This document shows, one piece after another, positions 3,762-64,000 of a stretch of DNA of 64,000 nt. Source of the stretch: Marsupella aquatica (Eukaryota; Plantae; Marchantiophyta). The position numbers were made by a program, and so were the translations under genes. The notes below the pieces were generated by a model that made no database searches, was not told where the DNA came from, and saw nothing but the letters and a program-made list of their open reading frames with translations. The stretch lies in contig OZ316896.1 of assembly GCA_973895155.1 (NCBI GenBank), positions 1,178,001-1,242,000 of the forward strand, read 5' to 3'. Position 1 is the stretch's first letter; each line of letters opens with the position of its first letter.

Positions 3762-3869
3762 GTACACATTATGCACATATAATATTTGGGCTAGCATAAT
3801 AATAATAATAATGCATAATTTGGGCTATACATAATAATAATGGCATTTGTAAATGTTATGTTTTGTAGA

Positions 3870-11624: not shown

Positions 11625-12183
11625 TAAACATCTTCTGCGGACAAAAACTTGCAGGAAGGGGCAAAATGCTAACAAGTTATGTGTTATCCTCTGACTTATG
11701 ATCCAACATCGTTGTGCTTTTTGCACAATCTTAATTTTGTTGCATTTCTCAAGACCCCCATATGCAAATTGGCCCATTTTTGAGGAGCTTTGGGATGCTG
11801 GTGGAGCGATTGCATCCCTCATTGTTTGTGCCTTGTTTGGGACTCCTGCCCTTACATTTTTTCTACTCTGACCGTCTCAGCCTGGGCCCTACATGATTTA
11901 GTATTCTTTCCGAGATGGGCGCAAGCAAGGCCGGCAGGGGGATCCTATTGGTGGGGCTCTGTTTGCCATGGGACAATTTTGTGCACTCCGGGTCTCTTTG
12001 GCTGCAATTCCCGGATGCATGTTAGTTTCCGTCCATTGCTGATGATACCCATCTTGTGGCACAAACATCAGTTTTAGGTGATGCTTATATTCATTTTAAT
12101 TGTGAACCAGTTGACCCTAGTTACTCAACCTTTCTGTTCAGCCTTGCAAGTGTGGGGTTTGGTCTCTGCATCCCCTTCCCAAC

Positions 12184-28677: not shown

Positions 28678-29017
28678 TGTTGAGCATAGACGACAATCGC
28701 AACGGCAAGCCCATGAACCATCCAACGCACAAGAGTCAACACAAAGAGATACATGGTTCACCTCCACATAAGGCTACGTCCATGGGAACACACATGAGCT
28801 GCACTCTAGGCCGACCGGCCATACCAAGCATCCACAGCACAAGCTCTCTCTATCTCTCAACTAGTTCCGTAACAATGAGCCTAAGTTCCCACTCTCCAAG
28901 CAAACACCGCTTGGTTATAGAGTGTGCACAACATGATTAACCTAACCAAGTCTGCGACTAAGGTTAGCCTTAACTACAATACAATCATTACTCTAGACCT
29001 AAGAGTAAATCCTAACA
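28678..29017 (-). repeat. 3' LTR (340 bp) of the minus-strand Copia element
   Basis: On the minus strand it reads TGTTAG...TCAACA and is preceded by the polypurine tract aagggggagat (29018-29028). About 215 bp are near-identical to the LTR at 46246-46593. Confidence 0.9.
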
Positions 29018-30334: not shown

Positions 30335-30631
30335 CTCGGGGGTCTCATTATATGGGGACCTCCCCATCACCTGCGACGTTTTTAGGCCTCAGACCCCCTA
30401 AAATGTAAGAAATTTTTTATATTTTTTAACCCCTATGAAGTTGGAATATTCTTGGAATATTCTAAAAATTGGATTAAAAAGACCCTAATGTTCTTATAAG
30501 TCTCAAAATTGAATTTAAAAGACCCTATTGTTCTTCTACAAAAATTCTTAAGTCTTCCCTTAGAACCAATAAAATGACCCTATCCTTCGTCGCACGTGAT
30601 ATGCCATTTTTGTGGAAGTGAAACCCCCGAG
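30335..30631 (-). mobile_element. MITE (297 bp) inserted in Copia RT
   Basis: Perfect 8-bp TSD gcttattc (30327-30334 and 30632-30639). Ends ctcggggg...cccccgag. Removing it restores ...PRQWNKRFD. Reverse-complement homolog of 9968-10264. Confidence 0.92.
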
Positions 30632-30829
30632 GCTTATTCCACTGTCTTGGTGACTGCTTCAACCCGTACAAGGATCTCAGCAATCTGCAAACCAAATCCT
30701 CTTGCCCTCTCTTCACAAAACCTAGCAGTTGTCTTCCAAGGTGTCATAGAGAAAAGTTCCTTATGATAAGGCAATGGGGAGTCTCATGTATTTGATGACT
30801 TGCACTAGACCTGATACATATGAACAAAA

Positions 30830-35483: not shown

Positions 35484-36427
35484 GTCATGCTGGGAAAGGA
35501 AAAACACAAATTGCAAGAGGCACCTGCACTTTTTTTTATACCTTCAGGCCCAGCTATACTAGCACTATGGGGCCTGTGGAAATGCTCTTACCCTCCATCA
35601 CCAACACCAAAAAAAACATTCCCTGCATCCGACTTCTGGTCCTCTTTGTCAAACACGCCCGCCACTATTAAAAAAACATTCCCTGCATCGAAAATCTTCT
35701 GTTGTTTTTGTCATACACGTGAATCTGACTCCATATAGAACTATTTTTTCCCGCCTGAAAAACTACGGTATGGTGCCGATAAGTCACCTTCCTCATGATT
35801 ATCTCTGGGCCATTGTGGAGCGGAAGCCGGCCAGTAAGCGTGTGAGATTTGGCTGTTTTCAGCTTCCACAGTACGCGTACTCACATTTGTTTAGTCAACA
35901 CTCAAACGAACGATCCTCGTTGAGCAAGTCTCAGGTACAGTACTGTAGTGCTCTACATTCTACTACTGTAGAGAGTTCTAGAATTCCCTTGCCCCTTGGA
36001 ATTACTTCGAGGCTGTGCTTCCTTCTCATCAGCATTCCAACGCTCTTTCTTCCGGAATCCGCGGACCTTTATTCAGCTCGAACCCCTTCGTGCTCTCTAC
36101 TCTCTCTCACAATCTCCCATCTCTCACAATCTGTCCTCTCTTGCTCCTGCCTCTTGCTTCCCTGGGCGGTGACTCTAGCCCCCTCTCTCTCTCTCGGTTT
36201 CCGCAACCTGCTTCTAAATTGTTCTCGAATCAGAAGTCCTACTATAGTTTACCTGACGGTACCCACTGTCTCCCCATGTCTCACTTGAGTGGTTCCCGCA
36301 ACAAGCTTCTGAATCGCTCTTTAATCACGCTGTTCCATTAGGCATCGTAGTTAGCTTGTTGGTAAGAGCAGTTTCTGCATTCCTCGGGTTGACGGTTTGG
36401 TTTGCCACGAATTAGAGAGGTTCCGAG

Positions 36428-37192
36428 ATGGCGTTGCCGACCGTGACGGATTTGTTTTACAACGACAGGCAAGAGCCGGTGATGGTGGTTGGCCAGACAA
36501 GTGATCGCTCTCGATCGCAATATCGGAGAGGTTATCTCTCTCGACAGGACTCGCGCATCTTCAGGTCCTCGGCATCCCCCCCGCCGTCCAGGTCTCACCA
36601 TCACGCGTCCTCCTGGTTTGGGTTGCGAAGATCGTCGCAATCGCCACCCAGACACCACCGTTATCAATCCAATTACTCAGACTACAGGAGAGGTAAGTAT
36701 GGCAGATCTCCCGAGCGCCACGGCATAAGTTCGTGGTTTCGCAGGCGGAGCTCGCATTCTCCACCGTCTAGTTATCACGACTATACATCGCACACGAAGT
36801 ACAGAGAGGATTACACCGGCTACCCCCTCGAGTCTGGCTACACTGCTAAGGACGGTTACAGAGGCCGCTATGGGTATGACGATTACTACGGTCGGCCTGG
36901 GTATTCCTCGGACATGTATCACGGAGAGCTTACAGCCGTGGTTCCTCGAACGTATCAGTCGACTTATGGAGGCGCTTTTAACAAAGACTACTTGGAGACT
37001 GTGAAGCTGAAGGTTCCGTTGTGCTGTGAAGCATGCGAAGAAAGGATTACGAATCACATGCTGGCTCTTGAAGGTGTGGAGTCCGTTACATGTGATCAGG
37101 TGAAGCAGAAGGTGACTGTTAGAGGGACTGCCACGCCTTCGGAGGTTTTGAGGCAAGGCAGAGAATGTTTCAAGCACACGAGATTTTGGTAG
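36428..37192 (+). CDS. Heavy-metal-associated (HMA) domain protein with a long R/S/H/Y-rich N-terminus
   Basis: C-terminal VKLKVPLCCEACEERI...LEGVESVTCD..KQKVTVRG...EVL is an HMA domain with CxxC. Intronless 254 aa. No C-terminal CaaX motif. Pyrimidine-rich upstream leader. Confidence 0.88.
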   Translation: MALPTVTDLFYNDRQEPVMVVGQTSDRSRSQYRRGYLSRQDSRIFRSSASPPPSRSHHHASSWFGLRRSSQSPPRHHRYQSNYSDYRRGKYGRSPERHGISSWFRRRSSHSPPSSYHDYTSHTKYREDYTGYPLESGYTAKDGYRGRYGYDDYYGRPGYSSDMYHGELTAVVPRTYQSTYGGAFNKDYLETVKLKVPLCCEACEERITNHMLALEGVESVTCDQVKQKVTVRGTATPSEVLRQGRECFKHTRFW

Positions 37193-40130: not shown

Positions 40131-40664
40131 GATCTCTCGTTAATTCAAATTACAGATTGCAGAGAAGAAGTGGCAACTTTTTCATGAACTGAAAGTCAAA
40201 GGTTTAGTGATCAGGAATTGATCTCTCCTTAATTCAAATTACAGATTGCGGAGAAGAAGTAGCCACTTCTTCATGAACTGAAAGTCAAAGGTTTAGTGAT
40301 CAGGAATTGATCTCTCCTTAATTCAAATTACAGATTGCAGAGAAGAAGTAGCCACTTCTTCATGAACTGAAAGTCAAAGGTTTAGTGATCAGGAATTGAT
40401 CTCTCCTTAATTCGAATTACAGATTGCAGAGAAGAAGTAGCCACTTCTTCATGAACTGAAAGTCAAAGGTTTAGTGATCAGGAATTGATCTCTCCTTAAT
40501 TCGAATTACAGATTGCAGAGAAGAAGTAGCCACTTCTTCATGAACTGAAAGTCAAAGGTTTAGTGATCAGGAATTGATCTCTCCTTAATTCGAATTACAG
40601 ATTGCAGAGAAGAAGTAGCCACTTCTTCATGAACTGAAAGTCAAAGGTTTAGTGATCAGGAATT
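40131..40664. repeat. Tandem array, 6 x 89 bp
   Basis: Units start at 40131, 40220, 40309, 40398, 40487 and 40576 and are near-identical. Units 2-6 contain the perfect hairpin gaagaagt-agcc-acttcttc; unit 1 has a variant. Confidence 0.95.
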
Positions 40665-42384
40665 GAGTGGTGCTCTATTTAGAAGTGCTCGAAAAACGTT
40701 ACCATCACATGAGTATTCAAGATTATTAAATTAGCATATACCGCTACCTACCCAGTTTCAGGCAATTTGAGGGGAACTAGCGTTTTGCAAAAAGCAAGCC
40801 AACCTCAGAATGACCAGCACAAGGACCGCCCGATTCTCACGACGGTTTTCGGTTTCTTATGTTAAAAAGACAGTAGAACTCAATGGGCTTAAATGCTCAC
40901 CAACGGATGACCGCCTAATTGATCTTCAAATCAAGCTTCACGTTTCGAGACATTTAGATAAAGCAGTCCCGGCTGTTCATCTACGGCCAATGCAGCCACG
41001 CACTATTGGGGACATTTACATGATGGACCCCAAATTGAACCGTGTTATTTTATGGACGCCACAAGTGATCCAGACAATTGATAGACCTTAAATCAACCTA
41101 CCCAAAATCTCGCCCCCAAAACCTCGCCACAAGTGATCCGACAGTTGATAGACTTTAAATTAACGTACCCGAAACCTCAAGTGATTCAGATAGTTGATAG
41201 ACCTTAAACCAACGTATCCAATACCTCATGGGTTGGTTGGGGAGAAAACTTTGAATTGGGTGTTCATCAAGTAATGGGATTGGTTGGAGACAAAACTTTA
41301 AATTTGGGTGATCATCAAGTAAGTGTCTCCGCACTGTTGCAATCGACTGAAAGCTCGTCCACCAACTAGAATCAAGGTTTAAGAATGAAACAGAATTTTG
41401 TAATTGCAGGGTGCAAGTAAAGTATTTCCTCGTTGGTAGGAAAGACACTTCGAAGCAAGCTCAATTTATTACTGGTGGCCAACAGACGTTTCATATGCAT
41501 TTGTCTTGCTTCAATCCGAGATGACCGTAACGCTGACTGTCTGCTTGCCAGAAGATGGCTAACTTGGTAGGTAAGGAATTACACAAAATTGGTCATGCCG
41601 TTCATCGCCTTGCACAGCAGATGCCAGGCAGCTCAAGCGCACGAAGACCTTAATGAGGCCTATGACTAGAGGACTATGAGAAGTACCACACGTCTGCCAC
41701 GTCATGCGTGTCGATAACGGTGGACGCATTCTGCCCCCAAAAAATAAAATTTGCCCTTGCTGGAAGCTGCGAAGAGATTTCGCAAGTTCCCAAGGAGTCA
41801 AAGTAGAAACGACGACAGCCAATTTCTATATAAAAAATCAAAAAGCAGCAAAGAAGAAAAAGTTCCCATTGCCCCGAGGAAGGAAAGACCAGGTTTGACC
41901 AATCGTGCCCTTAGCCATAGTAATGGATTCCAGTAAAGATTCCACCAATACCTGACCAGTCGTTGAAATTGCCGAAGAAAATTTTCACACTTTTTCTAGT
42001 TGCAGACTTTACTTGTGATACAAACTTACGGGCATCCATCGGTACCAGAAAATTTGTAACAACAGAGATTCTGATTGTGAATAAGTTCCTTGAGAAGAAG
42101 ATGGTGTACGTCAGCATGGGCATGGTCGTGCGTGGAAATGAGAATATCTTGGTGGGTGTGGGGCACTTTCCGGGATGTCTCTGCGTCAGGAAGCATTCAC
42201 TCTTGATCATTCTTGATCATTCTTGATCAGCGGAGCTTCGAGATTAGAATGTTTTTTTGAATGGATAAATATGAAATAGATGAACCTGAGGTCCGCGAGG
42301 AGCCAGTCATTCTGGCCGTGGGACTCGCTCGTCGGTCATGTTGGGTTGAAAGAACCTAATGGCTACACACATTTCAATGCAGTT

Positions 42385-46245: not shown

Positions 46246-46593
46246 TGTTAGATATTGCTCGATCTAGTCTTGTGACTCTTGTGCTAACCACAGTTAGGCT
46301 AACTCGGGTTAGGATCTAGCTAAGGTTAGCGGTAGTGCTGTTGTGCATATAGCCAGGGCTGATGCCAGACCCTGGTGGAACTTAGGCTCATTGTTAAGGA
46401 GCTAGTTGAGAGATAGGGAGAGCTTGTGCTGTGGATGCTTGGTATGGCCGGTCGGCCTAGAGTGCAGTAAAGCTCTTGTGTGTTCCCGTGGACGTAGCCT
46501 CATGTGGAGGTGAACCACGTATCTCTCTGTGTCACCTATTGTGCGTTGGATGGTTCATGGGCTTGCCGTTGCGAATGTCGTCTATGCTCAACA
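46246..46593 (+). repeat. 5' LTR (348 bp) of the plus-strand Copia element
   Basis: TGTTAG...TCAACA, followed 2 nt later by the PBS. Homologous to 28678-29017. Confidence 0.9.
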
Positions 46594-46595
46594 AG

Positions 46596-46607: not shown

Positions 46608-48103
46608 ATGCCTGGGAGGTGACGAGGTTTTTTCGTGACAAGTTTTTCCAGCGTTCATTGTCGATGGTACATTCAGAGTTTCGTCGCATGAAACTTGATT
46701 GTGTGTGGCTGAGCGGATAGGTTAGTGAGAGGGCATTCTAACGGTGGTTAGAGCTTGCTGATCGGTATCCGTGGTGCGGAGGAATTGAAGTTTGCGTCGT
46801 TCAGGGTTTATTCGTGTTCGACGGTATTTCGGGGGAGAAACCAGAGATTGTTTCTTCAACGGTGTGAGCTGTGCGATGCGCGGGGCGTCGCATGTGATAG
46901 TTCAAGTTGAAGGTTGGAGCGTGCTGGTCATTTTGGTATCTAGTTTGCTGACGTTTGCGAAACGAGTGCGTCGTGACGAGTGAAGGAGGCGTTCTGGTTT
47001 TTTGACAAGCTATGGTGCTTGTTTTTCCCTGAACCGGATTACTCGTCGTGACGCTTGACTCGGAGGAAGAAACGCGAAGTGCTGAGGCTCAACGGAGAGA
47101 TTGTGGTGAGACGGTCATTTTGAGTCCGGGATTGGCACTTGACGCGGAGTGAAGGCGACGCAACTGAAGTTCTTTCTCTGGTGGAGCTTCAGACGTGCCG
47201 GTGCAATTCAGAAACATTTTCATGTCGGCGGTCATCACTTTTCTCATTGGAAACCAAAGCGGAGGCGGCTGAGGTTTGTAACACGGCCTTTGTGTCATTT
47301 TGGGCACATTTTTAAGGTTAGTTTAGGGCATTTTTTGCCCCAATACGGTCCCAATACCCGACAAACCAGGTTCGCCATACGCCCCGGCGCGCACACCGGC
47401 CTCCCACACCCCTTTAAGCGCAAAAACGTGCTTTTTTGGGCCCAAATACGGCCAAAAACGCCCATATACGACCCAAAAACGCGAAAATATGCGCATTTTG
47501 ACCCCTGTAAACCCGTTTTTTTTCACGTTTTTTGCTGTTTATACGCGATTCTGGCCGCAAATACGCGCACCTTTGCCAGGGGCTTTAAGACCCCTTTAGA
47601 GTGTGTTTTTCTGAATTTTTTTCTCTCCTCCTCCTCATTGGTTGTGCCTCATCTCGGGCCCTGTGACCCTCCATTTTAACCGCTCCAACAGAGGGAACGG
47701 CCCCCTGTGAGCCCTGTTGGACTGTGCGGGAATATTCCCAAAAAAACAGAGAGCTGGTTTTCGGCCATCACACAAAGATTCCGTCCGCCGCACGGTAACT
47801 TTTTTGGTTCTTTTTTGGTGAGGATGTTGCCACTGGAGTTAGCAATGCGGCGCACCCATCACATCGTGATTCCGACGACAGGTTGTACTTGGTATTTCGG
47901 TTATTCTCCGAGGTGGTCAAAACGGGGGAGTTTCCCAAGGTTTTACCCACCCCGACCAAAATTTGAATAACTTTTCCGTCGAATTTCGATTTTGATTTCG
48001 GATTTCAGTATTGGACTCCTAGCTTTGTGGGCTATGCGGCGGTGTTGAGTTTTGAGTTTTATGAGAAGTTTCGAAAAAAGACGTTTTTTCGTGATTGTTT
48101 CAT

Positions 48104-51100
48104 ATGAGTGACTCGGAGGATACTAGAAGAATTGGCGTCGGTGGAGCTTCAGGATCGCGACGGTCAGACGGAGAGTCTGAGGAGGAGCTGCTACCGTTTG
48201 AGGAGGAACTTATAACACCGGTACGATCACCGGTGCGGCGTGCAGTGGAGGAAGCTGTGTTACTACCAGAGCTGTCGGTAGTAGGGAAGAAGAGGAAGAT
48301 GGCTAGATTTGGAGGAGTGAAGTTTGAGGTGGAGAAGTACGATGGTCGTACTGATTACTTGCTCTGGGAGAAGCAAGTGAAAGGTGTTCTACGGGCTATG
48401 GGCTTAGCTCATCTGCTTTCATCGCGAGAGCAGTATGATGGAGAGGAGGAGATTTCAGTGAGGCAATGGAGACAGGAGCAGGTGATTGCTGTCAATGCAG
48501 TGATGCTATATCTCAAGCCGCACATCATCAAGCAGTTGGATGATTATACGGATTGCGCATCACTGTTCAAGGCTCTAAGAGAGAAGTACTACCGGGTAGA
48601 TGCGTCAGACCGGTTATACAAGAAGTCTCTCTTGATGAGCCTCAGGCTCAAGGAAGGGAGCAAGATGCAGGATCACCTAGATGAGTTTGACAGTCTAGCG
48701 GTTGATCTGTCAAACCTGGGAAAAGGAGTTGAAGATGAGGATAAGGCCTTGCTTCTGCTAAGCTCCTTACCGCCGTCATATCAGGGCTTGAAATAGGTGC
48801 TCTTGTACAGAGATCTGAAGTCCATTTCGTATAATGAGGTGGTGAGCTCTTTACTGTCTGATGATGCTCAAAAGAAGCTGGGTCAATCACAGACAGCATC
48901 TTCTTCTGGCACTGCGCTCAATGTGAACAGGGGCAGAGCAACGCAGTGCACGAATGGGCAGAACAAGTTTAGATCAACATCACGGGGGAGATCTAAATCC
49001 AGAGGAAAATCGCAAGAGAGGAAGCCTCTTGCATGTTGGAATTGTGGCAAGACAGGCCACATGAAAAGGAATTGTCGAGTAAAGGTCCCTACTGCCTCTG
49101 CTAATGCAGCATCGAGCTCGCATGAGGTAGATTTACTCGATGATGATGACATATTGTGATGTCAAGGTTATGCTCTCAACGTAGTGTCAAATCCAGGTAG
49201 TGATGACTGGATTCTAGATAGTGCATGTACTTTTCACATTTTCTCTAGAAGAGATTATTTCAGTTCTTACATGGTTTCCAACGGGTCAGTGTTGATGGGA
49301 AATGGAATCCCATGTCAAGTTGTTGGACTTGGATCTGTACGATTTCAGATGTTTGATGGTGCTGTGAGAACATTGAGGAATGTGAGACATATTCCCAGCA
49401 TGATGAAAAATCTCATTTCACTTGGAGTTTTAGAGGCAAATGGCCATCAGTGGAGTTCTGCTAATGGTGTCCTTCAGGTTTCAACTGGTACTAAAGTTGT
49501 ATTGAAGGGAAACAGACATTGCAATCTATACGTTATGGAGGGCAGTGTAGTCTATGATGAAGCCAATGTAACCTTATCTCATGAGGAGACGGCCCGGCTG
49601 TGGCACTTCCGTTAGGGCCACATGAGTGAAAAAGGTTTGGTTATTCTTCAAAAGAAAGGATTACTTTCTAATTTGCAATCTTGTAAGTTGGAATTTTGTG
49701 AGCACTATGTGCTAGGGAAGCAGCACAAGAAACCCTTCGGAGTTGGAACTCACACCAGCAAGGAGGTACTTGAGTATGTACATAGTGATGTGTGGGGTCC
49801 CGCCCCTACTCCCTCACATTCAGGACGGTTATACTATGTCACGTTCATTGACGATTACTCAATGTATGTGTGGATATACTTTCTACACTATAAATCTGAT
49901 GTTTTTGCCACTTTTAAGGAGTGGAAAGCCCAAGTTGAAAATCAGACTGGTAATAAGGTGAGATATCTTCGATCGGATAACGGCGGTGAATACAGTTCCG
50001 GTGAATTTGGAATGTATTGTAAGGAGCAGTGGATTACCCGCCATCTCACAACAAGCTATACTCCTCAGCAGAATGGTGTTTCTGAGAGACTCAACCGAAC
50101 ACTATTGGACCGCTCGAGGAGTATGTTGAGTCAATCATGCTTACCACATGAGTTTTGGGCTGAAGCTGTCAACACTACAGCTTATTTGGTAAATTTTTCT
50201 CCATCCAGTTCTATTGGATTCAAGACGCCATTTGAAATGAGGTACGGGCGTCCAGCAGATTACTCACATCTGAGGATTTTTGGATGTGATGCTTATGTAC
50301 TTACACCTTCCCAGCTTCGATCCAAGCTGGACTCCAAGTTGAAGAAGTGCATTTTCCTTGGTTATCAGAAAGGTGTGAAGGGTTATAGGTTATGGGATCC
50401 AGTAACCTGTAAGCTAATTGTCAGTAGAGATGTGTCCTTTAATGAATCCAGATCATCAAAGGAGGGGGAGAGTTCTCAGGACTCCCATACTGACAAGGGG
50501 AAATCTCCCATCCCGGACCGGGTTGAGGGGGAGATTAGTCATGATGCAGTTCATGACAGGAGAGATGGAGAAGCTCCGGGCTTGGAGCTGATTCTTGTGA
50601 TGGAACAAGAGGAGAAAATTGTTGTTGGGGTACCTCAAATTCAACCAGCAGCAACAACAGATCAGCCTAAGTCATCTACTAGAAGAACTTCCAGTCGTTC
50701 TACTAGAGCTCCTACCAGGTATGGTCAATGGGCAGACTCATCTAAGCTAGATGATATTGACATTGCACCTGATGAAGATGATATGGCTTTGATCTTGGAA
50801 GAAGGAGAGCCTTCTTCGTATAGTGAGGCTTGTGCTTCAGAGCAGAAGCATGAGTGGAATGCAGCAATGCAGAGGGAGTTGCAATCTTTGAGTGACTAGG
50901 CCCAACTGGGCCCTAGCGATGGGCAAGGTTAGCAGATTCATGTCAAATCCCGGGAAGGTACATTGGGAAGCTGTGAAGTGGATTCTCAGGTATCTGAAGG
51001 GAACACAGGACTATGGATTACTATTTGATAACAGATCAGATAGAACGTTAGTTGGCTATGTAGATTCTGACTATGGAGGCTGTCTGGATACAAGGAGGTC

Positions 51101-51468
51101 TACAACTGGGTTTGTATACACTCTTGGAGGAGGATGTATCAGTTGGAAATCTACCTTGCAGAAGTGCATTTCTCAGTCTACTACAGAAGTAGAGTATGTT
51201 GTAGCAGCAGAAGCTGCAAAGGAAGCAATTTGGTTGGATAAGTTGATCGCGGAGATGGGTTTAGAGCATGGAAAAATGACTCTAAACTGTGATAGTCAGA
51301 GTGCTCTTCACTTGGCTGCTAACCAGGTGATGGATAGCAGGGTGAAGCACATTGATATCAGGTACCATTTTATCAGGCAAGCAGTGTCTGATAAAACTTT
51401 TGAGCTAGTCAAGATTGATGGAAAGCTCAATCCCGCTGATGCCTTTACCAAAGTGATTCCTTTGGAAT
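48104..51468 (+). pseudogene. Copia gag-pol pseudogene
   Basis: VEKYDG..DY.LW (gag), CWNCGKTGHMKRNC knuckle, WILDSAC protease, LWHFR*GH, integrase HSDVWGP/RSDNGGE/QNGVSER, GYRLWD, RNaseH YVDSDY/KHIDIRYH/NPADAFTK. Stops at 48794, 49157 and 49613. Jumps from ELQSL to TRP at about 50894. Confidence 0.92.
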
Positions 51469-51936
51469 CACTATATTCATTAAAACTATACTTTTAAAAG
51501 TCCATAAGATGAACCCTAAAGTTATTTTTTTTCAGGCCAAATTTCTATTAAAGCATTCCCAAAAGCTAATTTTTTTCAGCCCAAATATACACTTTTGAAC
51601 GCCCAAAATTTTGTTTTTTTCACCCAAATGTTTAATAATAACTTAAATCATATATTCTAATTAATTTAAAAATTAGAGTAAATTTAATTTAGTCCAAAAA
51701 TCAGAGGCCAATACCACTCAGACCATCTATAAATTAAAAAATATAGATGGTCATAAATCAAGGGTCAAAATGAGATTGACCCACTATATAATTATTAAAT
51801 TGTCCAGTCCAGTGAGAGAGCCTCACACTAAGCATATATCCTAATTATTTACTTTATCCTACATGTTCAAAACATATCCTTTCAAGACATAATATGAATG
51901 TACAATTCAGGGTAGGCACTAGAGCAACCCTATCTC

Positions 51937-52992
51937 CTAATGATCAAGACAAAACTCATTTGAACAAGAAAGTCTGCTTCCAGATTTATCATAGCGGATG
52001 TCACGGTTGCAAGTATCTCTCGCATGGTGGTTCTTAAACTTATTGGTGAGATCCCTAGTTCTGAGAACTTTCCAAATAAAATGCCTTCTATTTTGTGTAT
52101 GAGGACCAGAATAGTTGTCTCCAAGTATTACGTTTGCAGTTTCTTCGATCTCATCCGTGGTCCACGTCTCCAGTGGTGGGTAATGCTGCACCTCATTCTT
52201 TCCGTCCCAAGGAATCTCTTCAGGAGTCACATCCAAGATGGTTCCAAACTCCCTATGGATACAACGACAATCTCCCCACTTCTGTTCCAAAAGAGCATAG
52301 ATGGCAGCATGATCCTCCTTGCTTGTTAATAAATTGAAAACAGACCACTTTGGATTGTTGACAGTGATATAATGTTGAACGCAGTAAGCCTTTCTCAATT
52401 TGCAAAGATACGGCCATAATATCTCGGGCAAAAAAGTGTCATTTGAAGCTGTGTGGGTAAATGGATTTGGAAACAATCCATTCACGTCATAATTCAAAAA
52501 TGCCTTCAATGGAGAATCATCAATAAGAACTGTATTAGAAGCATCATATTTTTCTGGAAAACGGTCCCAAATGGTTTGCAAATTCTTCAGAAGTAAATTG
52601 GCCTTCCCATCTGTTATATCTGGCCTTTGGATGCAACTATCAAAGGTATCTTCTTGAGTAAAGACAAACTTGAACTTCTGTCGCTCCTCCTCAGTGAAAA
52701 TCAACTCCATTAAGTCCATTGTTTTTGGCCTCCTTGCACAGGTCCAAATTGCGATGTCAAAAACCATGAAAGCTGCATATAGAAATTCGTGGAGGTATGG
52801 GCGCTCCACATACATGAAATTAAACCCTCCACGTCTCCCCCAGTGCACACCACGTAAACTTGTCTGATTTCGCCATGGTCCTGAGCTTCTGGTCTTAATG
52901 CAATCCCAACAAATCTTGTTAAGGTCAAGAACCAAGAGCTTTCGCCGGATCGGAGAGTGTAGTATTGGAGTGAATTCTGGAAACATTAACAT
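51937..52992 (-). CDS. FCP1/NIF-family HAD phosphatase-like protein (351 aa, intronless)
   Basis: KLLVLDLN, RPYLHEFL, DIAIWT, FVFTQEDT, KNLQTIW, SNTVLIDDSPLK are NIF-domain motifs, with a DxN variant of the DxDxT motif. Confidence 0.82.
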   Translation of the reverse strand: MLMFPEFTPILHSPIRRKLLVLDLNKICWDCIKTRSSGPWRNQTSLRGVHWGRRGGFNFMYVERPYLHEFLYAAFMVFDIAIWTCARRPKTMDLMELIFTEEERQKFKFVFTQEDTFDSCIQRPDITDGKANLLLKNLQTIWDRFPEKYDASNTVLIDDSPLKAFLNYDVNGLFPNPFTHTASNDTFLPEILWPYLCKLRKAYCVQHYITVNNPKWSVFNLLTSKEDHAAIYALLEQKWGDCRCIHREFGTILDVTPEEIPWDGKNEVQHYPPLETWTTDEIEETANVILGDNYSGPHTQNRRHFIWKVLRTRDLTNKFKNHHARDTCNRDIRYDKSGSRLSCSNEFCLDH

Positions 52993-53330
52993 AAGCCCTT
53001 AGTCAATGCGACTCAAAGTTTAAACAATTACTACGGAGGAAAATTCTCAAAATTTGAAATCAAACAAACTTTGTTATAGCATTTGAAGTAGAGAGGAACG
53101 ACCCTGGGGCGACCCTCCTAGAAAAACATTAATTACATTCAATTGCCATTTTTTAGATCCAAAGTATACTTGGGTCAAACCCTTCCTCCACAGCAACGCT
53201 TTCCGAGGGAATGCCAACAAAATCCTTTGAGGAAGGAGATTCTACGACGGAACTTTGGTCTGTAAAAAAATATATTATTACAAAGATAAAGCTTAGATTG
53301 TTATTAAAATACCAAGAACCAAAGAAAGGG

Positions 53331-56300
53331 CTAATAATTTCCAATGCTAAAATGCCCAAATTCATCTATTGTTTGATCACCTAGAACACTCTGTATCTCG
53401 GAATTGATACCACTGGGAAGTTGCTCTTCAAAGGATGGGGGTGCAAAAACTGGGCTCAGTCTCAAGTTCAGTTTTTTGTAATCTGATTTTGCCATTATCT
53501 TTGGAGCATTGTCTAGTGATTCTATCATTCCAACCTTTGGTCCATTTCTCCATATAAAATGAGTTGCAGGACGGACTGTTTTCATATATCCAGTCCTGCC
53601 GATCTCGGATCCAGAATTTAGTGAAAATGATAATACTACGGGGCTTCCTGTAGAAGCACTTGTAAAAACCAATTTAGTCTCTGATGAGCAATATAGAGGA
53701 GACAGGGGAGGATTTGAAGCACCTGCCTTCTCTTCTTCATTTGCAGCGGTCTCAAGTACTTGACGATCATCCTCCTTTGCAAGCACAATGTCTGACATTT
53801 CTCCCAATTCTACTGCGTCAATATTGCCTAGACCATCTGCGGTTGCCTTCCAATGTGCGTCCGATGTGGACGATGTAAGATCTGGGTCCGATTGGTGCAT
53901 CCAATTCTCTACACCGGCAAAGGGATTTCTTGGTGGGTCGCCATCAGGTCGACCCACAACATCAGCCAACCCCACACCAAAGTAGGGAATACCTACCACT
54001 TGTGTTCCACGTTCATCCAAATTTCGGGTGACCCTGTCGTCTGTGTCGTGACCCAATTCTCCTTCCTCAATATCATCTTCGCCCTGGTCTACGCCTTCTT
54101 TGGCACCAACATGCTCGGAAACCCCATCGCGGGCTCTACCAAATTTGGAACCGCCCATCCGGTCACTCATTATGGAAGGAACTTTCTCGCAAAGAACCCT
54201 TCCATATGCCGAAGTGAAATCATATTCATCCTCAGTGTCTGAATACGCAAAGCATTCTCTGAAACACAACAATGACACCTTCATAACCTGTCCTCCCGAG
54301 AAAAAGTCAAGTATAGTCTCCCCTTCAGCCGAAAAAAATTCAATAATACTCTGCAGCATACATTTTGGCTTAGCGTGAATATTCACAAAGCCACCTCTAC
54401 TTCCCACCATCTCAAACATGGGAGCCTTTTGTAAGAAATCTCCAATGTGAAATGCCAAAGTTGACTCAGTCTCTGTCTCCTTACTTGTCTTACTCTTATT
54501 CTTATCTCGCTTCTCCGTCTTGTCTTCCACTTGGAAATCAGGGTCGATCGCCGAATTGTAAGAAAATTGGCAATTAAATCCAGGCCTGAACACTTGCTTC
54601 CAATCAAATTTCTCCTCAGTGGTGATTCCTGCAAAGATTATCTCCTCCATACCACAACTGAAAAGTAAGCCCTCTGGAACTGGTGTATCACTCCGTCGAT
54701 AGCTCCCGTAGTCGACGTGGATGTCCATTCCCTTTTCATGTTGCAATTTCCTAAGGGCACTCAAAATGTTTGCAGCAAGTGGCCCCGGATGCACAGTCAT
54801 GACAACAACAATTGTTGGATTTCTTGGAAGATCCACAATGTATTGCAGTAATGCAATAATTTCAGCATCGGTCCAAACATGTTGTCGGAGCCTACTGAAG
54901 TCAACAATGGCAAGAGGACACAAAGGCGAAGGCTCTTGTAGCATTTCCGGCACGGTCGTCTTCATCAAATTCTCACTAAAAAATGTCAAGAAAGGCTCCG
55001 TGCGAGAACGACCAATCCCACCAAATTCTTTACAATACAACCCATCTAGTCTGACCATCAGACTTTGTGGGAAACTCTCCTTGACCACATTCTTCTTCAA
55101 TGAATTGTTGAGGTAAACCTCACCCGCTGCTCTCCTCAATTTTGTCATCTCAAGCTCAGATTTCAAGGAAGGCAACAATATCACCAGAGACTCCCAAGAT
55201 GTGCCAACAGGAAACTTCTCACGATACTTTTCCACGAAATAGCCAATAATGACTGTTCTCAATTTGGACATTATCTTGATTGTAAGGGCCAAGTCTCCCA
55301 TTGCGACAAGCTCTGATTTGTTGGTGATATCCTTCTTCAGCAAGACACGCTCCTCTTCAACGTCCTTCAAGATCTCAATTATCTGTTTGCTACTAATCTC
55401 TCCTTCAAAGCATCGAAAGGTACCGGGAGTGATCAATTTTTGGGGTCTTGGCCCTCCATACCCACCAGCCCCGTCTTGGAGCTTCCCACTCAACCATTTT
55501 TCACACACGTTCCGCCATAATTCAAAGAGCTCATCTTCGGCAAAAAGTAACCAATAAATGCTCTTTAGGCTTGACTTCCCCATTGTAACCTTTGCCAGGG
55601 CAAACCAATCCTGCATATCCAATGGACTTGACATTAGTTTCAGGGTACAATGCATATGTTAGAAAATTTATACCTATGTTTGAAACAGGCTAAGCCGCCT
55701 CGCCCCAAGGGCGTGGCGAACCTCTACATCTAACCGCAATTGACTGAAACAGAACTAGGGAATTATTCTTAGAGAGACTAGTCTAGGTTGCCTCGCCCTG
55801 AGGGCGAGGCAACATTTGCTTTAATCTTCTAACCAAGGAAAACAAGAAAAGGCAGCCTCGCCCTTGGGGCGAGGCAAACCTCTACCATTGACAATCTTTA
55901 AACAAAGGGGATCAAGAATAGTTTGCGTTGCTCCAATATGTACCTGATAGTTTTTCCTGTCTGTATTTTGATTGGTCCCAATCCCTGGACGCGGCGGTTT
56001 CCCGCACTCCTCAAACTGCCTTCGTGCATGAACAATAGTCTCTAAAAAACAAGACTTAAATTGCATAGTATCATTGACAGCATTCGATAAACTTGAATGC
56101 TCAACCAAAATTGTCTTCGGAGTGAGGTCAGATAGGATCCTTGCTTTCCTATACTTTAGTTTGTTGGCAAGATCTGTCAGCTTGGCGTCAGTCTCGGCCC
56201 ACCCTTGGATCCATTGGGCAGCTCTTGCAGAATGCTGGCCACTGATGGCAAGGAATTGGATCTCATGCTTCTTCACACCAATCAAAAACTCTTTCCTATC

Positions 56301-58471
56301 CTGAAGTGTGTTGTCATAATGAAGCAACTGTTTAGTGCTCTCGCGATACGGAATCAAATCAGCAACTTGTGGTTCCTGTCCAGGGTTTTTCATCATAGAC
56401 TTTGATATCTCCATTGCATGCGAAAGATTGAACATTCGATATACAAAAACGGCCGATGGCGGATTAATACTTTTTACAGGAATATCAAAAACTTCGCGGA
56501 TGCCAAAAGTATAATACTGCTCAATATTACGCAAAACCTCTTGGCCTTTGAGCACATCATCTTCTTTGGGTCCTTCTATCGGACACATATCATCCTCTGG
56601 ATGCAAGACAAAGTTTGAAGTTGACCCTGACATTGGTTTTGATTTCGCAACCTTTGCCTTCTTTGTCTACTTTTTTTGGGGGCCCTCATCATCTTCATTT
56701 TTTTAGCCATCTTCTTACGGCGTGAACTCCCAGATTGTTTCTCTTGTTGAACAACCGGCTCTTGAAGCTTTTGTTTCTTCTCTGTCTTTGATTGCGCACT
56801 TCTTTCCACTGTCTTCTTTCTCTCCTTTGCCTTATGCTTTGCTTCTTTTTTCTTCATCTCTGAAATCCACGTCCGGCACGCGGCCTCTTGAAACTCTGGA
56901 CAAAAAATGAAACTCTTGTCGATTGCTTGCTCGTATGAAAAATGTGCCTTATCAATCATCCTTTGAACTATCCAAGTAGACGGAGGGTCCACACTGTCCG
57001 CATTGTCATGCATGTGCTTCTTTACATAGAGAAATCCAAACACTAGGTCAACTCCACTTATTTGAGAACGCGTCTTCTCAAACATCTGATCAATTGTTAC
57101 TCCATCTGGGAAGAATCCCATATTAGCTACGCTGATCTCCAATCGAGCCATCCACTCAACATTCAGTAAAGTCGAGTAGAGTTTTATTGGCACTAGAAGT
57201 CTCATCCACTGAGATTTCTCATTGGACTCAACAATAATCGTTGCATTGCAGTTGTTGTCCGTGTTCACAAGGACGACTGGACCTAGAGTAACAATTGTCT
57301 TGCGGTCATTCAATTGACTTGTGAGGCCCTTGAAACAAATCAAGAGACTGCCTTCCGCCGACACCCCAACTTCTAGTGCCCATCTAAATCCTGGAGTATC
57401 TTGGTCAGGGAAAACAAAGTCCTTGATATCCTCGTCCATAATATTTAACTCCGGCTTCTCAAGATTTTTTCCTGGTAAGAAACATTGAAAACAAAATGGT
57501 CAGCATCATATTTTTAACATTGACATGTGGAAAACTTTCAAGGTGCCTCGCCCTTGGGGCGAGGCGACAAATAGAAGATTGCAAAATCTTCTTTGCTCCT
57601 AGTGCAATTAGCCCTGCCACCTCATCCAAGCAATCAAACATTATTTAGGAATGCAGACGACATCGCCTCGCCCCAAGGGCGAGGCAACTTCTAGGAAAGC
57701 AAACAACATTTAGGAATGCAGACAACATCACCTCGCCCCAAGGGCGAGGCAACTTCTGGAAAGCAGACAACATTTAGGAATGCAGAGGACATCGCCTCGC
57801 CCCAAGGGCGAGGCAAATTCTGGAAAGCAGACAACATTTAGGAATGCAGAGGACATCGCCTCGCCCCAAGGGCGAGGCAACTTCTGGGAAAGCAGACAAC
57901 ATTTAGGAATGTAGAGGACATCGCCTCGCCCCAAGGGCGAGGCAACTTCTGGGAATGCAAACAACATTTAGGAATGCAGATAACATCGCCTCGCCCCAAG
58001 GGCGAGGCAACTTCTGGGAATGCAGACTACATTTGAGGAATGCAAACGACATCGCCTCGCCCCAAGAGCGAGGCAAAAAATAGAATATAGCTAAAGATCC
58101 TTTATTAATGTAAGATACAAGGTCCAATACGCCTTCGGAGCAACAAGAAATCTAGAATGAAGTAGACGTTGCCTCGACCTTGGGGCGAGGCGACTGCAAA
58201 GGAATATAGAAATTTTCCTAATAAGAAGTTTGAAATCCAAATTAAAGTAAAGTTGCCTCGCCCTTAGGGCGAGGCAAGAAGTTGAAGCAGGTGGTGCCTT
58301 ACGTGGAAAAGTTAACTGGGCTTTCTTTGACGCCTCCAACGCATTGTTAACAAATTTTTGGACATCCGGGTCTTCAGGGTCATATTCATACAGAGAGTTA
58401 TAATTGAAGTTCAATGACTCTTGAGAACTGGCGGAGGTGGTGGAAGCTTCAGAACTGGAGGAAGTAGACAT
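53331..58471 (-). pseudogene. Spliced gene for a ParB-like plus degenerate N6/N4 DNA-methyltransferase-fold protein; exons about 58471-58303, 57471-55944 and 55610-53331
   Basis: Phase-compatible GT-AG introns at 57472-58302 (FP c|ga KN) and 55611-55943 (NYQ|DWF). ParB-like: VFDIPVKSINPP...YR.FN..HA..I...M...FLAISGQHSARAA (about 56200-56500). MTase-like: PLAIVDF...HAKPKCMLQSIIEFFSAEGETILDFFSGG...RECFAYSD..EY (about 54220-54920). Frameshift plus TAG near 56670-56705. Confidence 0.62.
57637..58075. repeat. Intronic tandem array, 7 x 64-66 bp, each with palindrome GCCTCGCCC-CAA-GGGCGAGGC
   Basis: Cores start at 57665, 57730, 57794, 57858, 57923, 57988 and 58054. Additional solo cores at 55697, 55790, 55855, 57545, 58171 and 58255. 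Confidence 0.95.
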
Positions 58472-59636
58472 TGTAAGGGGCGAGTGAGATTTAAGATGAC
58501 ACATGGCAGCAATGGAGAATGCCACAGGCTGCAAGAGGGCACTAACAGGCAAACAATGATCGAGGGAGCGACCCAAAAGGGAAGGGAGCAAGGCGGAAAT
58601 AAAAGCCTTAGAGCGAGGCGGAAAACAAATCCCAAGAGCGAGGCAAAAACAAAAGCCCTAGAGCGAGGCAAGAGGGAGGCAAGGAGTGAGGAGACGAGAG
58701 AGGAGGCAAGAGGGAGGCAAGGAAATGAGGCCTCAAGCGCAAGGCCTGCCTTCCTATACCCCCTGCAAGCGAGGAGTCCAAGGAGGCAAGGATCTGAGAG
58801 GGTACGGAGGCATCAATGCGCGCCAATGATGGAGACCCTCCTCGGTGCATGTGATCGTGAGTCACCGATGGTGTGACCACTCACGACCACTCGCGACTCA
58901 CCTACCAATTTTAAACTTTCGAGCTGTCAGCGGTGTGTGCTCGCAACTCACCTATCACTCGACGTGAGTGATTGGCTGACACCCTATCCGATGTCTACTT
59001 GTGTGCTGGGTGCGTGCCTCATCCACCCGTGCCCGATCTGTTGGTGTCCACTCGTGTGCTGGGTAATGTGTGGGCTTTTTGCCTCTCAAACTGAGTATAG
59101 ACCTCCCACAATCCATTTTTTGGTTCATTGTCATTTAGACAGTGATTGGTACGATCATTGACTCTCCTCTGTCCGAGTGCCTTGTTTAGGTCCGCATGGT
59201 TGAATGCAAGGTTTAGTAAGGGCACTAGTGAGCACTGTGGTGCTAAGAGTTACAATGCTGGCATCCAAGGTACCCATTTAACTTGTACAAGGGTGGACAG
59301 AGATATATTGCGGAGCAGGTTAGTGATTTTATTTATTTATCTTAGAAGTACTAGCTCAACTACATCTAATTCAATACCTTTAAGCCAAACCTAGATTAAG
59401 ATTTACACATTAGGTTCTAGATCATATATTTTACTCATTCTAGACCTTTATCCACAGTCTAGCATGTGTAGAACTTACTGTACCCCTTTATGTGATTACT
59501 AACATAGTTTCTAGAAGTGGGTCGGAATTATTTCGTGCCGACCTGACTATGTCATCTTAACTAGCATTTTAAACTGGTATATAAAAGCATAAGCAAGATA
59601 GTTTCACAAATAGTTTTGACATAATTTCAACTTAAT

Positions 59637-59965
59637 AGTTGGAGTAGGGTCGAAATAATTCCGACCCAACTTATCAATGTTTAGTCAATTAAATCATTTT
59701 AAGACATATTGTTGGAGGAGGGTCGAAATAATTCCGACCCGACTTGTAAATGTTTAGTCAATTCAATCATTTTAAGACATATTGTTGGAGGAGGGTCGAA
59801 ATAATTCTGACCCAACTTGTAAATGTTTAGTCAATTCAATCATTTCAAGACATATTGTTGGAGGAGGGTCGAAATAATTCCGACCCGACTTGTAAATGTT
59901 TAGTCAATTCAATCATTTCAAGACATAATGTTGGAGGAGGGTCGAAATAATTCCGACCCGACTTG
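59637..59965. repeat. Tandem array, about 4.5 x 73 bp, each with near-palindrome GGGTCGAAA-TAA-TTCCGACCC
   Basis: Cores start at 59647, 59720, 59793, 59866 and 59939. A partial inverted copy lies at about 59519. Confidence 0.93.
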
Positions 59966-60091
59966 AATGTATTTAGGGTTTTGAGTGATTTTACAATATT
60001 TTTTGGAGGAGAGTCCAGATTTTGAAACATGATTGTAACATGGGGAACTTAACAATTTCTAACTTTATTTGAATACAGATAGTCCGCTATC

Positions 60092-63000
60092 ATGATCAAT
60101 TTTACACGAGGGGATGAAGTGTCATTGGTGATCGATGGATTTGAAACGGCAATTGGGATAGTTCAAAAGGTTGACCCCCAGGATACTATACAGAACATTT
60201 GTCTAGGGGACAATCGAATTGGGGTATTGATCGAAAAGTGTTTTGATGGATCGCATCAACTTCCATTTCCTTCGCCCAAATTTTCTACATTGGCTGAGGC
60301 AATTGACTCCTGCGTGATTTGGGATTGTGCATTGGCATACTTGAGGTCATCAACTCAGCGCCGAAGAATCAATGTCGATGATTTCTCTTTGGCTGGAGAT
60401 GCTGGAAATGATAAATCCAAAATTGATGCAAGGGTTGAAGAGGAAGTGTTCAAGGAAGGAGATGAAGTTCAGATGTTCATTTTTGATCAGTTGGTTGCAA
60501 ATGGAGTCGTTTTCAAGACAAATCCGATGGATATTTGTCATACTGAAACACTCGGGGTTGGTCGCATCAGTATAAGAATATCTGATATTGTTAAGGGAAA
60601 TCAAAAATTACCATACTCGCACCCTGGAGCTGATACAATAGAAGAGGCCTTGCATACCTGGGTTATCTGGGATGTTGCGCATGTTTCTAGAAAGGGGACT
60701 CTACGAGATTTTGGCGTGTTTGGTAGTTCAAATATTTTCAATGATCTTCCATTAAAAGATTTTACACTACGTTCCAACTGGATGGCGGAGGAGGTTGATT
60801 TGTATGATGCTTCTCGTTGTCGAAAGGTTGCAACAGGTGTTATCACGGTCCCATTTGAAATAGGTGCCGTTGACGATGAACTTCTTGGTGCAGATCATGT
60901 TGGTGTTGCTGTTGTGAATATCAATGAACCCGGATTATTTCCAAATATCCGTGTTGGTACCCCTGGCTTGGTGAGGTGGGAAATCAAATCCCTTCTATTG
61001 ATTTCGTCTCAAAGGTTTCTTGGGGATATCCTTGAGGAAGTTTCAGAGAAGTGGATGGAGTCGGGTCGAACTAAGGGCGATCCGGATTCGGATGGTGATG
61101 GTAAACCTACAAAAAGACCATACAATTTCATTAGGAGGACAAAAGTTGATCTTGAGGAGAGGAAGAAAAGGCATTTGGAGTCGAGGGCACTTTTGAAAAT
61201 TAACGAGGAGTCCATTGATTCCATCCAAAGAGAAGGTTGTTGCAAGCTGAAGTGTTGCTTGAACATGCCCAGGGAGGACTTAGAGGCAATGAGGAGGGAA
61301 TACCATGGAATGTCAAGTGACAACAAAACAAGTCACATCTTTAGTCTCTTTGGGTGTAGAGAGGAGCAAGTCAAGAGAAAGGGATTTTTTGTTCTAAAGG
61401 GACGTGTGGTTTGTAAAGATGCATTTATTAAAATGCATGGGTTCAGTACAACAAAGTACTATGACTACAAAAATCAATACGAAGCTGGTTGCACAATTGG
61501 TTTCCATGGAAATCAGGGACAACGGAAGACACGATCAAGCACTTTGCACGCTCGCGCCTTGTTGGAGTCCATTTTAATCCAAAATGGGGAACCAATGCCA
61601 CATCTTCCCTATGGTGGGTCCAACGGCACTGACACTATTGAATATCGGCTCCCATCTTGTTTTACTAAGAAGGAGATTTTCCAAGAGGTGTTTACCAAGA
61701 TGAAATTAGATGGGTTTGCTAAGGTTACTGAAGTTACTATGTACAACATCTGGAAAAACTCATTTGATAATTTTGACTTTCACAAGGGAAGTGCATTTGC
61801 CAAGTGCACATTTTGCACTGAGTTCAAAGATCAATTGATGCGGGAGAAGAGAAAAAAAGAGCGTGCAGAGATTGAAGAGAAAAGAACGCGACATCTTCGT
61901 GAACAAATGTCAAGAAGATATGTTTACTATGCTCATAGGGTTCTTGCAAAGAAGGATCCTCAAAACTATCTTTGCATTATTCACGATAAGATGGATCAAG
62001 CCAAGACTTGGATCCCCAGGTTGGTCCCCACTCCAAAATCCCTCTCTGGTAGTGGTCAGCCTTTGCCTATTGCTCTTACTGGGATGTTCACCCATGGAAG
62101 AGATCCTGGAGTGTATGCACATTTCAGTTTAACTGGACTTTGGCTTGGAGATGCAGACTTTACCGTGACATCTTTGGCCAAATGCCTCCGAGATTTGGAA
62201 GATTACACAGGAGACAAAACTGGAGACCTTCTTGAGGGATTGAATTAGAATGCAACTAGGCCAATATTTCAGTCCCTTCTAGACTTTGAAGCATTTCTGG
62301 CCGGTTACTTGGAACCCAAAAATGTTTCAATTGTTTGATTTCAAGGCATTGAAGATGGTCAGGAGACTAAAAAGTCAAGCACAGTGGATGTTGGTTCTAA
62401 GGATGATCCTGAGACTACTAGGGGCTCTTTCAAGCCCTTACCAAGGCACCTAATGTTGCAGATGGACAATTCAGGGAAAGATAACAAAAATCAATATGTG
62501 ATGGCATTTTGCACTGAGCTTGTTAGCAGGGGGTGTTTGAAACTGTGCAAATGTCATTCCTCATGGTTGGCCACACCCATGAAGACGTGGATGCATTATT
62601 TTCTCAAGTATCCAAACAGGTCAGATACAAAGAGGTTGCTACCCTCTTGGGGTTGATGGCTGAGGTTTGGGAGTGTGAAAGCATTCATCCTGTACCACGA
62701 TTGATTCAAGAGGTTGCATCTTACAAGGAGTATTTGAAAACGTTCCAGGTGAAAGAGATAGAAGGTCACTCAAGACCAGTGGCATTTATTTTCTCCATGA
62801 GGGATAATGTGCCAGTGTATCAATATAAAGCACATGTCAAGCAACCTTGGCTTCCGGCAATGGGGAGGTCCATTTGGAGAACTGATCCCATCACAAATGC
62901 GCTCATTTTACCGGAAGGCCAACCATTTGCAAAACCTATATCTGGGGATGTACAAAAGAAGGCTGGAGAAATCATCCCATTCCTTAATCGCTATATTGAT

Positions 63001-63807
63001 TTCTTGAAGAAAAGTTGTAAGGATGAGACCTCTGCAGCATATAAAGAGAGATTTCCTCTAGTCAAATATTGGGAGAATCTTGTGCAAGCACTGTCCGAGG
63101 AACTTACAATAGAAGGGGAGGGGGAAAGACATTTGCCATTGACAACTGATTTTTGGCCAAAGACTAACCATGGCACAGGTTACAAGATGATTTTGGGGAC
63201 ATCTCAGCCGTCAAGTGAACCTTCTCAAAATCCAGAGATGATGGACCTTCAAAATGAGTACATGGAAGAGATGGAAGATCAAGCTGCACCCTTTGTTGGT
63301 GCACGACAAGAGCGAGAACCTGCACGTTGGATTCCTCTACAAGATATTCAAGAAGGTCACTTTGTATTTTTACGTCCAGAGGATGAATGAGAACAGGAAA
63401 ATGGCAAAGGGCGTTTCTGGTTGGTTCGAGCTTTGGGTGGTGTGGATCCAAACCATGAGGTTCCCTCAACAGATTTGCAACATATTGAAGGGTCTTCTTC
63501 AACGTCTGTTGAGAGCATTCCTCTTAGGAATGCTCCTATATTCCAAGTACAATGGTGGAGGCCTAAACATGGTAAGCATGATGCAAAGGATGATGTTCGA
63601 TATGAACGTTGCTTTCAAACCACTAAGACTTGGGAGCTGGATCCTGGGTTTGACAATGTTACTCAAAGTTGGCAGTTTGCAAATTCTGCAATGTATGGGT
63701 TTAAGTCAGGTGCTAAAGAACAAAATATTATGGATAGAGGTTTGACAATTCCTAAGAATGTTTTGAAAACTCTCAAAATTTACATGGAAGGTATAATTGA
63801 TGAGTAG
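60092..63807 (+). pseudogene. Sola-like DDD transposase with three N-terminal Tnp1/En/Spm-like repeats; disrupted
   Basis: Three repeats of GDEV.L....A.G.V...P......LG..RI.V.I....LP.P....TL.EA....VIWD. Then CCKLKCC, VCKDAF..HG, HGN, AKCTFC..H, IIHDKMDQAKT, LQMDNSGKDNKN, FLMVGHTHEDVDALFS. C-terminal FWLVRA...QVQWWRP. Stops at 62246 and 63388; frameshifts at about 62330 and 62533. Confidence 0.75.
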
Positions 63808-64000
63808 ATTGATAGAACTCGTAGGTTACAAGTCTCCACTCAAATGACTTGTGATTAAGAGGGTCGAGTTGATTTCCATGCGTTGGTCTAAAGTGAGAGA
63901 ACAAGACAATCAAATTAATACTCTATGATCTCTCAAAGCTATTGAATGGACTTTCTTATAATTATTATTTTATTTGTCTTAGTATATTTTAATTCTAGAA

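Follow-up and report, generated by a model that had tools for sequence, protein, structure and literature searches.

A block of at least 12.5 kb, beginning with CACTA, splits the RNase H region of a Copia retrotransposon in a 64-kb stretch of the liverwort Marsupella aquatica (contig OZ316896.1, positions 1,178,001 to 1,242,000; hereafter the window, numbered from its first letter) and extends past its edge at 64000. The block encodes a DDD transposase on the plus strand and, on the minus strand, a spliced cargo gene for a protein with a ParB-like domain and a methylase fold, together with a frame of the NIF/FCP1 homology type (Table 1). We find that it represents a single, decayed member of a multicopy DNA transposon family whose elements measure at least 12.5 kb. 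A first-pass annotation, made from the sequence alone, had described a block of more than 12 kb interrupting the Copia RNase H and a divergent region shared by the plus- and minus-strand genes, and both descriptions held; the CACTA terminus at its left end (51469-51473) had gone unremarked.

Table 1. Features of the element and of its insertion site in the 64-kb window
Feature	Position	Strand	Description
Copia pol, 3' part (RNase H)	50892..51468	+	decayed and interrupted by the insertion; ends in GAAT, a candidate target-site copy
Left terminus	51469..51505	+	starts CACTATATTC; the ~37 bp may be a terminal inverted repeat
NIF/FCP1-homology frame	51937..52998	-	open; DLNKI motif; exon probably begins at 52976; splicing to the upstream gene possible
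Possible small exon	53170..53259	-	predicted only; would provide an in-frame link between the methylase and NIF exons
Cargo gene, exon 3	53331..55610	-	helical region followed by a beta-class N4/N6 methyltransferase fold, an acidic linker and a small C-terminal domain that is conserved
Cargo gene, intron 2	55611..55943	-	3 copies of the 21-bp palindrome; junction agrees with spliced homologs P0035 and P0128
Cargo gene, exon 2	55944..57471	-	conserved domain without match, Lys-rich linker, ParB/Srx-fold domain with SGQHS motif
Cargo gene, intron 1	57472..58302	-	10 palindrome copies, some of them in a 65-bp tandem array (57643-58076)
Cargo gene, exon 1	58303..58471	-	predicted ATG at 58471
Divergent intergenic region	58472..60091		25-bp repeats with palindrome half-sites (58586-58669); 73-bp tandem array (59638-59965)
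Transposase gene	60092..63807	+	~1240 codons, broken in this copy; N-terminus with three Tnp1/En/Spm-like repeats, then a Cys-rich region, the DDD core (DUF7869) and a C-terminal domain weakly resembling BAH
Element continuation	63808..64000		runs to the window edge by sequence and read coverage; right terminus not within the window

Insertion site, copy number and linkage

The RNase H frame of the interrupted Copia (...VIPLE) breaks at 51468/51469, and the match to Copia is lost at 51466-51468. Across the break point, the other Copia copy of the window (29270-29695, minus strand) continues normally, and Copia contigs uninterrupted there were present in all four public runs analyzed, which come from three coded organisms and three studies. 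Two X5 contigs diverge from the element sequence after 51505. Contigs with other flanks join the element at 51466/51467 (at least three and at least two contigs in X1, at least two in X5), with an agreement among those flanks of 0.49-0.68 for the matches listed; AAT or AT before CACTA therefore belongs to the shared sequence. The flank consensus of the other copies ends in A before AAT (at least three X1 and at least two X5 contigs), and the two consensuses fit a 4-bp A+T-rich target, AAAT there and GAAT here. An inverted partner of the left end was not found within the window, whose edge falls inside the element, and neither the left end nor the final 140 bp showed a hairpin. A scan of 38 related loci yielded no credible ends with a terminal inverted repeat (TIR) and target-site duplication (TSD); a long inverted pair in locus L049 was rejected as element ends, looking rather like a separately inserted repeat.

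All 30 bins of the coverage analysis were covered in all four runs. Among long, near-identical X1 contigs, depth was 499 at the left end, 515 over NIF, 480 over the methylase, 474 over ParB, 421 over the spacer and 509 over the 5' transposase, and divergent contigs had a depth of 12-22. These values suggest tens of young copies with the same gene content. Because the three genes share one depth and other flanks meet a common left end, the genes move as one multicopy element.

A metagenome scan returned 203 related transposase stretches, of which the best 80 were kept and collapsed to 52 distinct loci. A NIF profile built from the window and Riccia sequences only matched six of these loci, and the methylase profile matched two (L020, independent E-value 3e-5; L055, 0.03); reversed decoys, run as a control, matched none. 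Queries derived from L039, whose remnant is NIF by Pfam (E 4e-8), added locus L023. Six of the eight cargo loci share the arrangement of the window, with the cargo upstream and on the other strand; the exceptions are L039, with cargo upstream on the same strand, and L055, with cargo downstream. The cargo label was unclustered on the transposase tree (8 changes, with 212 of 500 shuffles as low). The L020 contig carries plant-like, intron-bearing host genes, and the loci closest to the window transposase are contigs of 2-6 kb, too short for cargo.

On this evidence the block is very probably one mobile, multicopy element carrying all three genes, and the even depth, the common left end and the linkage elsewhere bear out the earlier proposal that the genes travel together. 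Several observations pull the other way. The right end and the target duplication fall outside the window, and none of the contigs listed spans the whole element. The depths in X1, possibly the source sample, are those of contigs and do not amount to copy numbers. Forty-four of the 52 loci show no cargo, being old, decayed or short contigs, and all eight cargo loci belong to a clade of 39 rows, made up of decayed transposases and separate from the 4-row clade of the window. The recurrence of the gene set at unrelated loci was found in part: NIF and methylase remnants lie beside decayed related transposases in plant-like contigs, but the ParB profile matched 0/52 loci, as did its decoys.

Domains of the transposase and cargo proteins

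The transposase carries the acidic motifs HDKMD (Asp at about 61985), MDNSGKDNKN (about 62465) and GHTHEDVD (62569-62592), and the DDD triad HDKMD, DN..NKN, GHTHE-D-D is present both in the window and in intact relatives. Pfam DUF7869 matches the protein at E 5e-11 and 2e-22, and the four named relatives are all from Calypogeia fissa. The motifs of the DDD transposase annotated earlier are thus in place, but the gene is not intact: in-frame stops occur at 62246, 62336 and 63388, with a frameshift near 62525. At two of the stop positions (62247 and 63390), the reads of every one of the four runs show G at full depth, so sister copies are open there. The three N-terminal repeats (PF03017/PF26133-type, 60092-61006) also occur in 8 of the 80 related loci; PF03017 scores above the cut-off in three Calypogeia relatives and weakly in the window transposase (E 0.017). 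A CACTA-type accessory domain thus sits on the DDD core of a DUF7869 transposase. The C-terminal domain (63340-63807) is conserved and Trp-rich; a BAH identity was set aside, as the match was weak (BAH of SHL, E 0.5) and Pfam gave no support.

The large minus-strand gene with a ParB-like domain is present, with three predicted exons bounded by good GT..AG sites and a predicted product of about 1325 residues. In this copy, exon 2 is interrupted by a stop codon (56667-56669) and a frameshift (near 56699), in the Lys-rich linker. Searches gave six longer relatives of the ParB exon and 108 relatives of the methylase exon at E up to 0.001; metagenome contigs yielded no relative of the ParB exon. 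Cargo relatives share 35-76% identity and retain long open frames and the intron position. Ten of the 20 looked up were named, nine from Riccia sorocarpa (at least five scaffolds, counting one cluster member) and one from Calypogeia; all the named relatives are thus liverwort proteins, which points to a liverwort host. Four gene models (P0128, P0107, P0101 and P0035) hold ParB and methylase in one chain. A domain of about 200 residues ahead of the ParB domain (56760-57471, minus strand) is present in all six homologs and has no Pfam or PHROG match.

We predicted the structure of the ParB part from 10 sequences, with a predicted local distance difference test score (pLDDT) of 80; folding from a single sequence gave only 36. 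Foldseek against the PDB placed Noc, ParB and sulfiredoxin first (Noc, E 8e-4), and against viral models it returned phage ParB-like proteins (best E 2e-5). In VIA-align, the top eight rows all had the ParB/Srx fold; the best, PadC, reached Z 7.8 over 98 aligned residues (root-mean-square deviation 3.3), a Z below 8 that is modest taken alone. Sequence profiles in the PDB, Pfam, PHROGs and NCBIfam did not recover ParB, and dynein-fragment clusters from an Atlas search were rejected for low recognition (1525). As modelled, the ParB fold of the cargo protein holds up. Its motif is SGQHS, with S, Q, H and S invariant in 10/10 rows. CTP-binding ParB proteins carry the arginine motif GERR, and the GxxR arginine motif of ParB CTPases proper was not found in the cargo family. 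By sequence, SGQHS appears nearer to the DGQHR/DndB type (PF14072, E 0.05 in one relative).

A profile of the methylase family aligns with M.RsrI (153-270) over the C-terminal half at E 3e-9, and PF01555 matches seven relatives weakly, one of them at the cut-off. These matches show a permuted fold with the S-adenosylmethionine (SAM)-binding motif I C-terminal, and judged by the M.RsrI profile match the beta-class methylase fold holds up. The catalytic motif [DNS]PP[YFW] was absent from all 111 relatives and from the window exon. The presumed motif IV, located by position rather than by structure, is acidic in 42/42 rows (40 D, 2 E), none of them with PP, and a basic or His residue follows three places later in 36 of the 42. 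Motif I reads DFFSGG in 26 of 41 rows and is one residue short relative to M.RsrI. Exon 3 of the window has DFSR at the presumed motif IV and DFFSGG at motif I. The methyltransferase fold assigned at first pass therefore stands, but not an ordinary methylase. No relatives were found in viral contigs, and tblastn with two relatives against 50,697 phage records gave no match.

Pfam NIF matches the NIF frame at E 9e-17, and the frame falls below every NCBIfam cut-off. Phosphatases of the FCP1/SCP type, which act on the C-terminal domain (CTD) of RNA polymerase II (Pol II), carry the motif DxDx(T/V). The window frame has DLNKI in its place, without the second Asp; at this site relatives read DVEGL (P0094) and NLNGV (L039). 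The nearest solved structure is UBLCP1 (PDB 3shq, E 1e-9). An open frame with a NIF domain is thus present as annotated, but its identity as a CTD phosphatase is not supported. Two further predicted introns would fuse the methylase and NIF frames into 1686 residues. Of two gene models, Riccia P0109 has the methylase and NIF parts in one protein, and in P0094 the chain breaks off shortly after a NIF domain has begun. However, coding-like sequence past the donor needed for the fusion is kept in P0004 and P0028, and sequence conservation in these homologs argues for a separate stop of the methylase gene. Two to three tandem, diverged NIF remnants per locus lie beside decayed transposases in L039:3849-7166, L049:1165-3657, L055:13555-15485 and L064:1782-3402.

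A 21-bp palindrome, GCCTCG-N9-CGAGGC, is present in 13 copies across the 64 kb, where 0.01 would be expected. All 13 copies lie inside introns of the cargo gene (10 in intron 1 and 3 in intron 2), 4-7 kb from the left end and not subterminal. The 73-bp array upstream of the transposase carries a second, imperfect palindrome. Related transposase loci have repeated palindromes of their own, differing from those of the window (L003:640-1570, L005:630-930, L016:198-345 and L012:557-934), and L011 has its own at 50-690 and 2835-2920.

Described elements and possible roles of the cargo

DUF7869 is, we presume, the core of the Sola1 transposase. A DDD triad is given as a Sola trait (PMC10741241) and a 4-bp AWWT target duplication as a hallmark of Sola1 (PMC3845634); here and below, statements on published work refer to the parts of each source that were available. 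The element probably belongs to the Sola1 group, under which its CACTA end and Tnp1/En/Spm-like repeats remain unexplained.

The design of a transposase with a ParB-methylase gene is close to a recently published algal layout. Sola1-1_Ec32 of Ectocarpus (PMC12477816), compared here by layout as described rather than by sequence or catalytic motif, is also a giant Sola1 element (21.5 kb) with an opposite-strand gene for a ParB-like and N4/N6 methyltransferase protein (1104 aa, against about 1325 predicted here), and self-binding and self-modification were proposed for it. Unlike the window element, it resides in a brown alga, has AACCG-CGGTT termini, a 282-bp TIR and a 4-bp TSD, and its main text does not mention a phosphatase. 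The layout is matched in part by Plavaka (EnSpm) elements of the red alga Bostrychia, with the genes PAG1-3 (bioRxiv 2025.02.11.637652). These are 17-19 kb long and, like ours, have accessory genes that encode a PF01555 methylase and a ParB-like domain, the ParB gene being flanked by tandemly arranged inverted repeats. They differ in having an EnSpm transposase, in lacking a phosphatase in the text available and in their separate genes, with the methylase fused to SET and ParB to a 2-oxoglutarate (2OG) oxygenase. Sola1 transposases exist in bryophytes, as in Sola1-1_PPa of Physcomitrella (PMC12477816; moss Sola in PMC10741241), although no cargo is described in the text covered.

The permuted beta-class fold is shared with phage ParB-associated methylases, M.RsrI, MpDN4MT1 and rotifer N4CMT (PMC4738411, bioRxiv 2021.02.12.428880, PMC8885841), all of which have the DPPY/SPPY motif that the window family lacks; phage PF01555 clusters, with a match of 0.87-0.89, are a lead only. 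The NIF domain match relates the third gene to NIF/FCP1-SCP phosphatases of the haloacid dehalogenase (HAD) class and to UBLCP1, from which it differs by its DLNKI motif and by having no BRCT or UBL domain. The anti-silencing VANDAL/VANC Mutator elements offer a parallel, since their accessory protein is likewise proposed to target repeats within the element that encodes it (bioRxiv 2025.02.11.637652), but they belong to another superfamily, their protein is unrelated, and the function of VANC is shown where that of the window protein is only proposed.

The first-pass annotation knew of no plant transposon with this gene set. Our literature search, which left most subscription papers and Repbase Reports outside its scope, found no land-plant element with the set and no transposon-borne FCP1/CTD phosphatase; a transposase with an opposite-strand ParB-methylase gene, however, is already known in algae (PMC12477816). 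New here are the land-plant host with young copies and the NIF passenger common to a second plant clade, as well as a catalytic motif lost throughout the family, palindromes confined to introns and CACTA-like traits on a DDD transposase.

The reading we favor, at about even odds, is that the ParB-methylase-fold and NIF proteins serve self-recognition and protection of element copies. Under this proposal, intact copies would supply the DDD enzyme for cut-and-paste transposition, and the ParB protein would load on the intronic palindromes, in line with the ParB/parS system and with what has been proposed for PAG3 of Plavaka. The methylase fold, with its SAM side kept and its target-base motif replaced, might read or shield DNA or use another chemistry, and the NIF domain could contact the transcription or chromatin machinery. 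Element copies would then be marked or shielded rather than methylated in the ordinary way, with an anti-silencing outcome possibly like that of VANDAL/VANC. One observation counts against ParB as the binder: palindrome arrays adjoin transposases in L003, L005, L011 and L016, on contigs too short for cargo, and the transposase could therefore bind them. A broader version, which we consider conceivable but doubtful, is that bryophyte Sola1 giants carry a self-targeting module in which a ParB clamp on intronic palindromes delivers a re-purposed methylase fold (a modified-base reader or a writer with new chemistry) together with a phosphatase-like domain that contacts Pol II, the parts possibly forming a single chain of 1686 residues. 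This would constitute a second, bacterially derived anti-silencing system of land plants, independent of VANDAL/VANC.

A recently multiplied liverwort family with a candidate 21-bp binding site makes the self-binding proposal directly testable in a land plant, and liverworts offer transformation and methylome tools as well as a known bacterial-type N4-methylcytosine (4mC) system. The family-wide motif loss suggests that the algal prediction of 4mC or N6-methyladenine (6mA) writing may not hold, at least here. In liverwort annotations, such cargo genes add to the count of 'hypothetical' or 'FCP1 domain' proteins.

It is unlikely that the methylase fold is instead an active writer with a non-canonical site that modifies the element with 4mC or 6mA, the role suggested for Sola1-1_Ec32. 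The conserved acidic position with its basic or His neighbor and the DFFSGG motif would suit an enzyme, and liverworts do use a bacterial-type 4mC writer (bioRxiv 2021.02.12.428880). Against this, [DNS]PP[YFW] is missing throughout the family, rotifer N4CMT requires SPPY for activity (PMC8885841), and motif I is shortened.

Rather unlikely, too, is a role of the cargo as transposition cofactors, in which a ParB clamp and the palindromes pair distant ends, or the Tnp1-like repeats of the transposase bind palindromes like TnpA of En/Spm. The three N-terminal repeats, with PF03017 above cut-off in the Calypogeia relatives, and the family-specific palindromes adjoining related transposases agree with such a role. 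However, the intronic, non-subterminal position of the window palindromes does not, and the methylase and NIF domains would be left unexplained.

As for the superfamily, a placement in CACTA/EnSpm (CMC) rather than Sola, a matter of filing and not of cargo function, seems quite improbable. The CACTA terminus, the occurrence in relatives of PF03017, a CMC marker (PMC5751038), and the weakly BAH-like transposase tail would favor it, and the first two count against Sola1. On the other side, the third catalytic residue is Asp, and the core matches DUF7869 only (window, P0007, P0012 and the related loci), the Transposase_21 (PF02992) DDE core being absent from every protein scanned. Other copies also appear to have A + AAT before CACTA, matching the Sola1 AWWT target, and AAGTCCAT is similarly placed in an insect Sola1 TIR (PMC3845634). 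Finally, neutral captured host or phage DNA of the Pack type, or three insertions adjacent by chance, would accommodate the broken window copy and the many loci without cargo, but is most improbable given the long open frames and intron position kept in diverged relatives, the gene set in mostly like orientation beside a different transposase clade, and the even depth across all genes.

Other features of the window

The interrupted Copia (47500-51468) also lacks most of its reverse transcriptase, its integrase running into RNase H near 50900, and its family is very high-copy in all runs. A second, inverted Copia 3' end with a long terminal repeat (28677-29899, minus strand, and 46377-46594) is about 78% like the interrupted copy. 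At 2662-4262, three tandem related frames contain a repeated Cys/His-containing module; the one scanned had no Pfam match. Host-like DnaJ and heavy-metal-associated domain exons, plus a frame with a chromodomain, probably of Gypsy origin, lie at 17317-17844, 36416-37192 and 20221-20967, and an 89-bp tandem array of six copies at 98% occupies 40131-40666. Dispersed repeats with 40-bp subrepeats occur in both orientations (5188-5348, 9968-10264, 11365-11627 and 30332-30632) and are possibly the ends of another DNA transposon.

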